From positions 544,001-608,000 of the forward strand of contig CAXXUA010000004.1 of the NCBI GenBank assembly GCA_963663765.2: 64,000 nt of DNA. Direction: 5' to 3'. Below, one piece after another: positions 60,637-63,936 of the stretch. The position numbers were made by a program, and so were the translations under genes. The notes under the pieces were generated by a model. The model did not search any database and was not told the origin of the DNA. It saw only the letters and a list, made by a program, of their open reading frames with translations. The first letter of the stretch is position 1, and the number at the start of each line of letters is the position of its first letter. The stretch comes from Candidatus Poribacteria bacterium. GTDB taxonomy: Bacteria > Poribacteria > WGA-4E > WGA-3G.

Positions 60637-60651
60637 GTATTGACAGAAAAG

Positions 60652-61483
60652 TAGGGTTATTCAGTTTTAAGAATCTATCGTTATGCCAGTTAATTTTGGG
60701 TTAAGATTAACGACTTGTGCCAGTTAACCCATTGTTTTCAAAGTTTTTACATATATTAGGTTTATAATGCATACATATCGTCCCTACGGGACTAAAGAGG
60801 ATGTACTATGCCGTTTTTCTATAAACATATCGTCCCTACGGGACTGAAGATCGTTTCAAACTATGAAGGACACCTGCAAAACACCATGCTTATGTGAAAC
60901 AATGATTAACATATAGTTATTTAGCACAACTCGTTAAATTACTAATTGGTAAAATTGGTAATTTTTTCTTCGGAAAAACCCAGTCATAGACAAGATTTGT
61001 GTACAGAAAAAATTACCAATTGCCTGAAAGTAGCGACTTGTACTAAATAACTATTTATTAAAAATTACTTCACATAGACAAGTGGATTTAACCGTCCTTC
61101 TTTTGCTTTGGATGATCTTTAGTCCCGTAGGGACGAAATGTTATATACCATACCCAATATATGTGAATTTAGTATAAACATTTAGTTAACTGGCACAAGT
61201 CGTAAGATTAGTAATTATATAGGATTTTTGTGGTATTCTTGATTTTGGTCTGAACTAGGATTTTCAGGATGAGTAGATTATCAAGATATTACTCATCAGA
61301 TCCTAATCCAAAAGAGAGCATAAACACATATCAAAAACCCTTGACGAGGTAAATCCTGCTAATCTGGTAATCCTGAAAATCCTGGTTCAGAAAAAGAATG
61401 GATTAACTCACAAGAATAAGCTCACTCAAGGATTAACAACTTTGATAGAATTTACTCAATAAATTGAAAACTGAATAACCCTG
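60652..61483. mobile_element. Non-autonomous element with (C)AGGGTTATTCAGTTTT ends hosting a nested family B composite (60710-61203)
   Basis: Inverted ends at 60652 and 61483; the nested unit has a 7-bp TSD AAGATTA; another end copy at 63720. Confidence 0.7.
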
Positions 61484-61567
61484 TCCTATTGATTTAGGAG
61501 TTGTTTTTTTCTGATGAATTCTGATACAATAATAAGATAAGTTGAACATCAGAAAAAACAATTCTTT

Positions 61568-62312
61568 TTTCTATTTCATTTAGGGGATTGACAACCCCCT
61601 AATACTTATCAATATTGTATCATATATTGTACAGGACTTACGCAGTTTTCTTGATTTAATCAAAAATTATGATGAAAATGATGCCATTATCAGCGTTTTT
61701 ATGGGTTTCCGGCGCGCTTACAAAGCACGCCTACCGTTGGGTGCGTAAGTCCTGTTTCTAATTCATTTAGGGATTGACAACCCCCTAATACTTATCAATA
61801 TTGTATCATATATTGTACAGGACTTACGCAGTTTTCTTGATTTAATCAAAAATTATGATGAAAATGATGCCATTATCAGCGTTTTTATGGGTTTCCGGCG
61901 CGCTTACAAAGCACGCCTACCGTTGGGTGCGTAAGTCTTGTTTCTAATTCATTTAGGGATTGACAACCCCCTAATACTTATCAATATTGTTTCATATATT
62001 GTACAGGACTTACGCAGTTTTCTTGATTTAATCAAAAATTATGATGAAAATGATGCCATTATCAGCGTTTTTATGGGTTTCCGGCGCGCTTACAAAGCAC
62101 GCCTACCGTTGGGTGCGTAAGTCCTGTTTCTAATTCATTTAGTGATTGACAACCCCCTAATACTTATCAATATTGTTTCATATATTGTACAGGACTTACG
62201 CAGTTTTCTTGATTTAATCATAAACTATGACGAAAATGATGCCATTATCAGCGTTTTTATGGGTTTCCGGCGCGCTTACAAAGCACGCCTACCGTTGGGT
62301 GCGTAAGTCCTG
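61568..62312. repeat. Four tandem 186-bp units, each 63-bp flank plus a complete 123-bp family A MITE
   Basis: MITEs at 61632, 61818, 62004 and 62190; TSD TTGTA at the outer junctions. Confidence 0.92.
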
Positions 62313-62426
62313 TTGTAATTAAGACAAGCAATAAATCCATTCTATGTATAGGCTTATAGCAGTTTTATTGAATCCCAAAACAACTAATTCCCAAGCTAAA
62401 TAACTCTGACCAGATATGTTTTCTTA

Positions 62427-62455
62427 TTGACATTCAATAAAAAACATGTTAACAT
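62427..62455 (+). promoter_or_regulatory. Putative promoter of the UxxU gene
   Basis: TTGACA-17 nt-TAACAT. Confidence 0.5.
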
Positions 62456-62538
62456 TTATACAAAATTAAGAACAAATTTGACTTATACCTAACTAAAATA
62501 CATTGTAGGTAAAAACTAATATTCGTGAGGATTTAACA

Positions 62539-63594
62539 ATGAAAAATCTACTTACAGCAATACTTGTTATACAGTTCGTTTTCATTTCTCTCGGTTTCGC
62601 ACAAGAGAGCTGAGGTGCGTGAAGCAACCCCACAATCCCACTCAGTGGGGGAGATGAAGTTAGTTTAACTTCAGAGCAAAAGAGATTTCAAATTACATTT
62701 GGCACACGAACTTTTAATGCCCATGGTGGACACGATGAAGTTAATGGTATATCGGCATTTGGTGAACCACCAGAACCTGTTGCTGCACACCGTCATGAAG
62801 TTGAGATGAATGTAGTGCGCTTTGAAATCGGATTAAAATACAAAATAAACAAGAATTGGCAACTGGAAACTATAGTTCCTTATGAGATAAAAGACCAGAA
62901 TGCTAATGTAAGTGGACTTGAAAACATTGATGATTCTGAAATGCACAGGAAAATACTACTCTATCAAAATATTCATCATCGGGATGAAACCTATCAAGGT
63001 ATCTCGGATATGGATCTATTGATGTCTTATCACAAGCATGGTCTTCTGATGAAAAATGATATGTTAACCGCGAAATTTGGATCAACAATACCGGTTGGAA
63101 AAACAGAAAAAGACCCATGGAAACTTGGTGATATGGGGATGGAACATCTCCATCTTCAATTCGGCACTGGGACATTTAATCCCATCGCAGACCTGCGTTA
63201 CTCCTTTCCAGTATATGCTGGATTGTCTGTAAATGCAGGTGTTCGCAGTAAGGTGCCTTTCTATGAAAACAGTAAGACATATCTCGGCTCATGGGAAGTT
63301 ACCTATACTGGTGGATTGAGATATAAAGTCGTAGACTGGCTTTCAGTACAGTCAAGTTTTCTTGGACTATATCAATCCTTTGCACATTGGGATGGAGAAA
63401 TTGACATCAATACAGGATTGCAGTTTAGTATGGCTTCTTTGGGAGCATCTTTCTCAACTCCTTACAATGTCCCTTTGACTATTACATTGATGTTGCCAAT
63501 ACAACAAGAAACCCTTTACGAAGACTCGCAGAATGGCAGTGATGCTTTCAAATTGAGTATGTTAGTTTCTCTAACTGCGTTGTATTCCTTTTGA
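62539..63594 (+). CDS. Putative selenoprotein (UxxU) outer-membrane beta-barrel protein, 351 aa
   Basis: GAGGA RBS, ATG 62539, signal peptide; in-frame TGA at 62611 and 62620; continuous frame into ORF 62806-63594; QFGTGT motif and terminal YSF. Confidence 0.72.
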
Positions 63595-63936
63595 TCTTAG
63601 CTCCAAGATAGAATTTGACACAAATATTGTGAGTCGTAATTCATCGTAAAAGAGTTCATAGACAAGTGTTTTTCTGCTCAGTTCCTCGCTTCATTTAGAA
63701 TGATACCAACTCCTTCCCCCAGGGTTATTCAGTTTTCAATTTATTGAGTAAATTCTATCACAGTCGTTAATTCTTGAGTTTGCTTATTTTTGGGGTTAAC
63801 TTATTCTTTGTTTGAAAAACCTGGTTTCGACATAAATAATAACTTTGCACACGCATACAGTTTAGGTTGAAAACCGTGAATTATTCTGATAAAATTATAT
63901 AGAAACATCAGAACTTCTTATAACAAAAGAGGCGAT

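Follow-up and report, generated by a model that had tools for sequence, protein, structure and literature searches.

Can a reading frame interrupted by two TGA codons, spaced exactly as the cysteines of a CxxC motif, encode an intact protein, and what would that protein do? The question is raised by positions 62539-63594 of a 64,000-nucleotide stretch of Candidatus Poribacteria DNA (contig CAXXUA010000004.1, positions 544,001 to 608,000 of the forward strand), the whole of which is called the window here. A first-pass annotation had read this region as a hidden gene for an outer-membrane protein with two selenocysteines (Sec, U) in a UxxU motif, arguing that paired nonsense mutations are unlikely to fall in CxxC spacing. 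That argument holds: since one paralogue and well over a hundred further genomes share the same two TGAs, their pairing lies far beyond chance. In our judgement the gene is probably intact and encodes an exported UxxU selenoprotein that would act as an outer-membrane relay channel for soft metals of the Hg/Cu type. The parts of this reading are not equally firm. The selenoprotein identity (both UGAs decoded as Sec, a signal peptide and a barrel of the FapF/COG4313 type) appears very likely from the sequence comparisons, and the soft-metal role of the barrel is somewhat better than an even guess.

The elements of the gene are the following.

62427-62455, forward strand: candidate sigma-70 promoter (TTGACA 62427-62432, 17-nt spacer, TAACAT 62450-62455), a putative element picked out by eye
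62527-62531, forward strand: ribosome-binding site GAGGA, 7 nt 5' of the ATG at 62539, read directly
62539-63594, forward strand: the whole predicted selenoprotein gene, 351 codons plus the TGA stop at 63592-63594, from read-through translation and full-length homology with two-TGA copies (the paralogue and other genomes)
62539-62601, forward strand: signal peptide, residues 1-21, MKNLLTAILVIQFVFISLGFA, then QES; predicted cleavage GFA/QES
62611-62613, forward strand: UGA 1, codon 25, read as putative Sec; Cys in the CxxU and CxxC relatives
62620-62622, forward strand: UGA 2, codon 28, read as putative Sec; TGA in all Sec-lineage copies read, Cys only in the CxxC relatives
62686-63591, forward strand: beta-barrel domain, residues 50-351, 12 strands, with a C-terminal Phe (AlphaFold2 model, Foldseek, invariant alignment columns)

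The two UGAs are separated by GGT GCG, and beyond UGA 2 the frame stays open for 61 more codons until it enters the 262-residue open reading frame (ORF) at 62806-63594 in the translation table 11 list. The read-through protein contains the His motifs AHGGHD, AHRHE, IHHRD and EHLH and ends in ...LTALYSF, followed by TGA. Thus, every element that had been described from the letters (ribosome-binding site, ATG, signal peptide, TGA-GGT-GCG-TGA at codons 25 and 28, 61-codon extension, His clusters and terminal Phe) is present in the sequence. A hydrophobic leader ending in small-x-small ahead of Q-[ED]-S is kept among the aligned orthologue loci. Cleavage after GFA would place the two Sec at residues 4 and 7 of the mature protein, whose predicted N-terminus is Q-E-S-U-G-A-U-S-N-P.

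Such a locus could also be a pseudogene, or owe its TGAs to assembly or strain errors, so that only the 262-residue ORF from 62806 would be real or nothing would be made. Database gene calls agree with this in that all of them shorten the protein. None of the best 120 database proteins covers more than 89% of the query, all lacking N-terminal sequence, and the call for the window itself has 262 residues. However, the region 5' of 62806, which encodes the signal peptide and barrel strands 1 and 2, is conserved at the protein level. The source genome (G000) carries a paralogue (G000:C5:450667-451737) that is 52% identical and shows the same AQES-U-GA-U-SNP over two TGAs. Moreover, both TGAs were retained in two DNA runs from related strains and in an RNA-library contig from a sponge that spans 62568-62806, in which the sole change near the motif is synonymous (62616 T>C); it should be noted that RNA-library contigs are no proof of transcription. 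The suspicion that the TGAs are assembly errors or peculiar to one strain thus finds no support.

The survey of the phylum points in the same direction. The names under which homologues are recorded agree with the assignment of the DNA to Poribacteria. A homologue was matched in 140 of 176 genomes, and the matches follow the families: f1 (111/111), f2 (11/11), f4 (7/7) and f3 (10/29), with none in seven other families (0/17). Among the matches listed, which leave aside 99 further ones, every row has an in-frame TGA, mostly two, with nine rows of one TGA and one row of three. When 62 Poribacteria loci were read by script, the two TGAs stood at the same columns in 54 (UxxU) and the other 8 were CxxU, the second position always being TGA; these loci are mutually related and do not count as independent. 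The pair also recurs in unrelated GC-rich lineages. Sixteen metagenome loci comprised 11 UxxU, one CxxU and four CxxC; ten of the UxxU loci are GC-rich and dissimilar to Poribacteria, and one UxxU locus is 99% identical to a protein cluster labelled by NCBI as a Planctomycetota metagenome-assembled genome. Taken with the retained TGAs, the chance that the gene is a pseudogene or an artefact is negligible.

What the homologues carry at the two positions is TGA or Cys and nothing else. An exhaustive HMMER search returned 378 representatives at E <= 0.001, of which 16 reach the N-terminus, and 14 of these 16 read C-x-x-C-x-N-P. The remaining two, P0179 and P0204 (the latter matching the translation of locus L062), have both TGAs rendered as Trp (DSWGAWSNP), as some pipeline used a TGA=Trp code on their contigs. 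In alignment A5, the two Cys/Sec columns (C27 and C30) are invariant together with N32 and P33. Hence both CxxC and CxxU homologues exist, TGA is conserved within Poribacteria, and homologues with other residues at both positions were absent, as the selenoprotein proposal had anticipated.

Some unusual copies were seen in passing. In locus L082 (G119:C5:4100-5761), a conserved Trp is replaced by a third in-frame TGA (MMR-U-FDA versus MMRWFDA), probably through a mutation or a sequencing error. L061 and L063-L065 are fragments, and the G039 copy (L061/L063/L065, G039:C56:9108-10115) is spread over three reading frames, being either a pseudogene or a frameshifted assembly. In one genome, a CxxU and a UxxU copy (L051 and L056, G055:C1:6235489-6239091) stand in tandem about 1.5 kb apart.

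We then come to how the UGAs are read. The source genome encodes selA (620.8 bits), selB (361.6 bits), selC and selD, all four above curated cut-offs, and the objection that the genome might lack Sec machinery fails. Its tRNA-Sec (78.5 bits, anticodon TCA, i.e. UCA) lies directly after selB. The selD gene (L012:1441-2520; G000:C2:220603-221529, minus strand) is itself a selenoprotein gene with an in-frame TGA (KCAG-U-ASK); the long stem of its selenocysteine insertion sequence (SECIS) begins 7 nt past the UGA and presents a CGGGU loop at +19. TGA also serves as an ordinary stop in this genome: the barrel gene ends in TGA where orthologues end in TGA, TAA or TAG.

One or both UGAs might nevertheless be decoded otherwise, either as Cys by a tRNA-ReC-like tRNA acting with a SECIS or as Trp or Cys by near-cognate reading, and the motif would then be CxxU, UxxC or CxxC. 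The accessible text of a 2026 paper describes tRNA-ReC-like tRNAs as enriched in genomes with UxxU hydrogenases; UGA 1 is the very position that alternates with Cys inside Poribacteria, and that one SECIS serves two UGAs 9 nt apart is an assumption. Against this, a single tRNA of the source genome reaches the tRNA-Sec threshold (78.5 bits, the runner-up scoring 40.6), with anticodon UCA, in a search that was not dedicated to tRNA-ReC. Moreover, TGA rather than TGC or TGT is held at both sites across deep divergence, which argues that the encoded residue differs from Cys. We regard decoding as anything other than two Sec as improbable, and retain the reading in which the genome's own SelA, SelB, tRNA-Sec and SelD would insert Sec at both UGAs.

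Recoding of this kind would be directed by mRNA structure just downstream of the UGAs, where two hairpins were recognised.

62628-62650, forward strand: hairpin 1, 3' arm GUGGGG (62645-62650), 5' arm either CCCCAC (62628-62633, register A) or UCCCAC (62636-62641, register B)
62655-62673, forward strand: hairpin 2, UGAAGUUA / UAACUUCA, loop GUU (62663-62665), candidate SelB-binding SECIS core

Both were assessed on an RNA alignment (A2) of 34 sequences, starting 12 nt ahead of UGA 1 and ending 99 nt past it. In hairpin 2, 93.7% of the cells are paired and five of the eight pairs show compensatory changes, some of them coupled to amino-acid changes (VSLT to VGST). The two-hairpin structure as a whole is 89.4% paired, a figure that drops to 27-49% on shifting the partners by 1-3 columns. 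Hairpin 1 is more variable: its registers A and B, with 5' arms 8 nt apart, are each 75-88% paired, both contain compensatory changes, and both covary with the same column 48, a synonymous site. The minimum free energy (MFE) fold of this gene's hairpin region takes register A. Judged by eye on MFE folds, the UxxU sequences gave 13 A, 5 B and 2 other (n=20), and the CxxU sequences 3 A-like and 6 B (n=9), a mere trend, among related sequences, for the register to track the motif (UxxU upstream, CxxU downstream).

Outside Poribacteria, MFE folding of the 10 GC-rich UxxU loci gives hairpin 2 in seven (all but L167, L177 and L184), with loops GUU, GUG, AGUUC, GGUCU or CGGGUC. As a control, hairpin 2 and the two-hairpin layout are absent from all four Cys forms. 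An Rfam scan of 62450-62850 gave nothing beyond a chance engA match (E 5.5). Hairpin 2, a conserved stem of 7-8 bp, is thus our best candidate for the SelB-binding core, with the variable hairpin 1 as a putative spacer that, once folded, would shorten the effective distance between the UGAs and hairpin 2 to a canonical value.

As for the protein, an AlphaFold2 model built on alignment A1 (U written as C) reached a mean predicted local distance difference test score (pLDDT) of 87.7 and a predicted template modelling score (pTM) of 0.83. It has 12 long strands from residue 50 on, two loop helices and, ahead of strand 1, a segment of about 28 residues with pLDDT below 60. In Foldseek, FapF ranks first (E 4e-12), ahead of the COG4313 channel 4rl8 (E 6e-11) and then FadL/TodX, so the model and the structure comparison agree with the beta-barrel that had been proposed from the letters. 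Six His (H65, H86, H146, H147, H203 and H205) are invariant in alignments A1 and A5. Family searches contributed little: Pfam returned sub-threshold barrel families and no PF13557 match for the window protein, NCBIfam returned no match at E up to 1 (NF041115 and NF041027 included), a profile search of the PDB sequences gave nothing meaningful, and no longer fused forms (616-2000 residues) were found in a search that is weak as evidence.

This fold leaves room for a genuine UxxU barrel that conducts hydrophobic or organic substrates, with the diselenide or selenol pair as a redox-sensitive gate or plug. The FapF and COG4313 resemblance fits such a channel, as do the nearest named ESM Atlas clusters, which are PF13557, and the metabolic rather than metal-related Poribacteria neighbours; moreover, the N-terminal segment of COG4313 channels occludes the lumen, according to the consulted part of their description. 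On the other hand, PF13557 stays below the Pfam threshold, and the six invariant His with the CxxC/UxxU pair resemble metal ligand sets. The neighbours in other lineages, described below, likewise speak for metal, and we consider an organic channel unlikely, if worth keeping in mind.

In 7 of the 10 non-Poribacteria loci the barrel gene is immediately preceded, on its own strand, by a thioredoxin-fold gene, and in four of these the latter encodes an exported heavy-metal-associated (HMA) domain and a WCGPC-thioredoxin in one ORF. The HMA parts of three (L184:3192-3905, L198:3102-3857 and L210:3159-3833, all in GC-rich metagenome loci) have a lipobox followed by GMT-U-xxx-U, in which two TGAs stand for U and the spacing is longer by one residue than in the usual CxxC; gene callers would see only the thioredoxin half. 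Against NF041115 the partner's HMA domain scores 44 bits, below the cut-off of 95. Other neighbours are a copper P1B-ATPase (TIGR01511, 616.6 bits), MerB (247 bits), a heavy-metal ATPase, a CusA/CzcA-like RND (resistance-nodulation-division) pump and a MerR-family regulator. The Cys form P0135 even carries a C-terminal HMA domain (E 5e-11). It is from these consistent neighbourhoods outside Poribacteria that we infer a relay of soft metals through the outer membrane.

The first-pass annotation had guessed at metal or selenium uptake. Its metal half gains from the neighbourhoods of other lineages and receives nothing from the Poribacteria neighbours, which include no metal genes. Its selenium half would make the protein a UxxU barrel for selenium or sulfur species (selenide, polysulfide or thiosulfate) instead of metal cations, and a thioredoxin partner would fit chalcogen chemistry as well. 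Yet no sulfur or selenium metabolism genes were seen in the 13 neighbourhoods scanned, and HMA domains and metal pumps indicate cations; a chalcogen channel is therefore very improbable to us.

For a soft-metal relay, we propose the following mechanism. After removal of the signal peptide, the sequence Q-E-S-U-G-A-U-S-N-P would form the tip of a flexible stretch of about 25 residues leading into the 12-stranded outer-membrane barrel. The N-terminal selenol pair and the six invariant His would bind a soft metal (Hg(II), Cu(I) or similar), which may be passed through the barrel, in either direction, between the outside and periplasmic carriers. In other phyla the carrier would be the HMA-thioredoxin lipoprotein encoded directly upstream, whose thioredoxin domain would keep the CxxC/UxxU pair reduced. 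In some lineages the relay would consist of two selenoproteins with four Sec in total, the GMT-U-xxx-U HMA-thioredoxin lipoprotein and the UxxU barrel.

At the RNA level, hairpin 2 with its G-U-U loop is taken as the SelB-binding element, and the two registers of hairpin 1 suggest how one such element could serve two UGAs 9 nt apart. The ribosome would melt the first 5' arm, the 3' arm of hairpin 1 would re-pair with the second 5' arm 8 nt further on, and the effective distance to the SECIS would stay roughly the same for either UGA. That both proposals are right together, a register-switching cassette for the recoding of two UGAs and an unrecognised outer-membrane component of mercury or copper handling, is a rather doubtful conjunction, which we offer tentatively.

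Several observations weigh against the reading of a UxxU soft-metal channel. The loop of hairpin 2 lies +52 nt from UGA 1 and +43 nt from UGA 2, farther than the selD loop at +19. The UGA-to-loop range used in searches for bacterial SECIS elements is 16-37 nt, which hairpin 2 exceeds. The loop of hairpin 1, at about +23 or +22, has canonical spacing, yet it lacks a conserved G. On alignment A2, RNAalifold predicted hairpin 2 and a 2-bp stem and did not predict hairpin 1; the shuffle control is inflated by sequence relatedness, and folding of single sequences yields unremarkable energies (window z = -1.5 to -1.7). In the protein model, the Sec-bearing segment (residues 15-44) has low confidence, and selenium in the polypeptide is itself a prediction from sequence. 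As for the metal, the link rests on loci of other lineages. The Poribacteria neighbours (an aldo/keto reductase, a peptidase and an SBP_bac_5 ATP-binding cassette system) are unrelated to metals, those of loci L089, L110 and L159 gave no functional hint, and the HMA-thioredoxin fusion was not found in the source genome, where a generic thioredoxin match was obtained (E 1.9e-8). Finally, COG4313 channels are thought to carry hydrophobic molecules, according to the part of the literature on them that we consulted.

Given that the barrel resembles known proteins in fold, we compared it with them and with systems that handle soft metals. FapF has a plug before its barrel. It is the best Foldseek match (PDB 5O65/5O67, TMq 0.56-0.57), at 12% identity; unlike the window protein it has no Sec, CxxC tip or His cluster, and the window gene lies outside any fap operon. 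In the MerP/MerT mercury relay and around the copper outer-membrane proteins PcoB/CopB, soft metals are handed between paired-thiol sites of the envelope. HMA carriers and MerR-type control also stand beside the barrel in other lineages, a functional analogy only, as MerP/MerT and PcoB/CopB have no sequence relationship to the barrel family. To our knowledge, the mer system has no outer-membrane component, and no outer-membrane step is known for mercury.

The COG4313/PF13557 channels, such as Pput2725 (PDB 4RL8, TMq 0.58), share with the window protein 12 strands, a length of about 300 residues and a segment before strand 1; in Pput2725 this segment occludes the lumen from the periplasmic side, as stated in the accessible part of its description. 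The window protein gives no PF13557 match in Pfam, and the distant Cys forms P0205 (18.3 bits) and P0236 (19.3 bits) stay under the gathering score of 22. The barrel family further differs from PF13557 by its C/U-x-x-C/U-x-N-P tip, its six invariant His and its neighbourhood of metal genes rather than aromatic-degradation genes.

UxxU motifs as such are not new. The available portions of the selenoprotein literature name a metal-binding (seleno)protein (NF041115), a Prx-like oxidoreductase, an FmdB-family protein and group 4 [NiFeSe] hydrogenases. Like the window gene, they place UGAs 9 nt apart where CxxC would stand, their relatives include Cys and CxxU forms, and a stem-loop with a loop G follows downstream. 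The window family is distinct from them as a protein family and in its export to the outer membrane, and its conserved G-loop hairpin is unusually far away, behind another hairpin. The sole outer-membrane beta-barrel selenoprotein in the consulted parts of the reviews is the GSU2204 family/MtrB-PioB (NF041027), listed in a review table with one Sec, no motif and a CXXCH context, unlike the UxxU of the window protein. In the main tables of these reviews and in the literature, as far as accessible and with supplementary tables outside the scope, no counterpart of the barrel family was found. A literature search for a Sec-containing outer-membrane beta-barrel with a SECIS led, in what could be consulted, to the selenoprotein reviews only, and one combining selenoprotein, outer membrane and heavy-metal-associated domain led to none. 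The expectation of an unusual selenoprotein class is thus borne out for an outer-membrane barrel family with two Sec, and goes too far in that UxxU proteins and one outer-membrane barrel selenoprotein are already on record.

The barrel is a core gene of Poribacteria, usually present in two copies per genome, and is also found in other phyla. Since the database entries seen are N-terminally truncated or have TGA read as Trp, its signal peptide and likely active site are invisible to ordinary annotation. We are thus dealing with a real, widespread selenoprotein family missed by annotation, new in its kind and location, with a known logic of Cys/Sec exchange. With it, the prokaryotic selenoproteome would gain an exported outer-membrane family with two Sec. 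Selenium use would moreover be tied to envelope metal handling, where the affinity of selenium for mercury would be chemically meaningful. The family also offers a natural system for studying how two close UGAs are recoded, a question that the paper on UxxU hydrogenases, in its accessible part, leaves open.

The surroundings of the gene are rich in repeats. A tandem array of four 186-bp units with 98% identity occupies 61568-62314, just 5' of the gene. The roughly 124-nt core of its unit is dispersed genome-wide (539 first-look candidates yielded at least 57 scored matches), and a small repeated ORF in the array (MMKMMPLSAF...) is probably a repeat artefact. Inverted repeats of 73 nt that are 92% complementary (61411-61483 and 63720-63792) flank the array and the selenoprotein gene, and the 73-nt arm has at least 41 matches in the source genome. 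We considered whether the inverted repeats and the array form a gene-specific cassette; this is probably not the case, both being dispersed repeats of the genome. The region 60640-62538, about 1.9 kb without a convincing ORF, is crowded with more inverted repeats (I2-I6) and also has a direct repeat of 26 nt.

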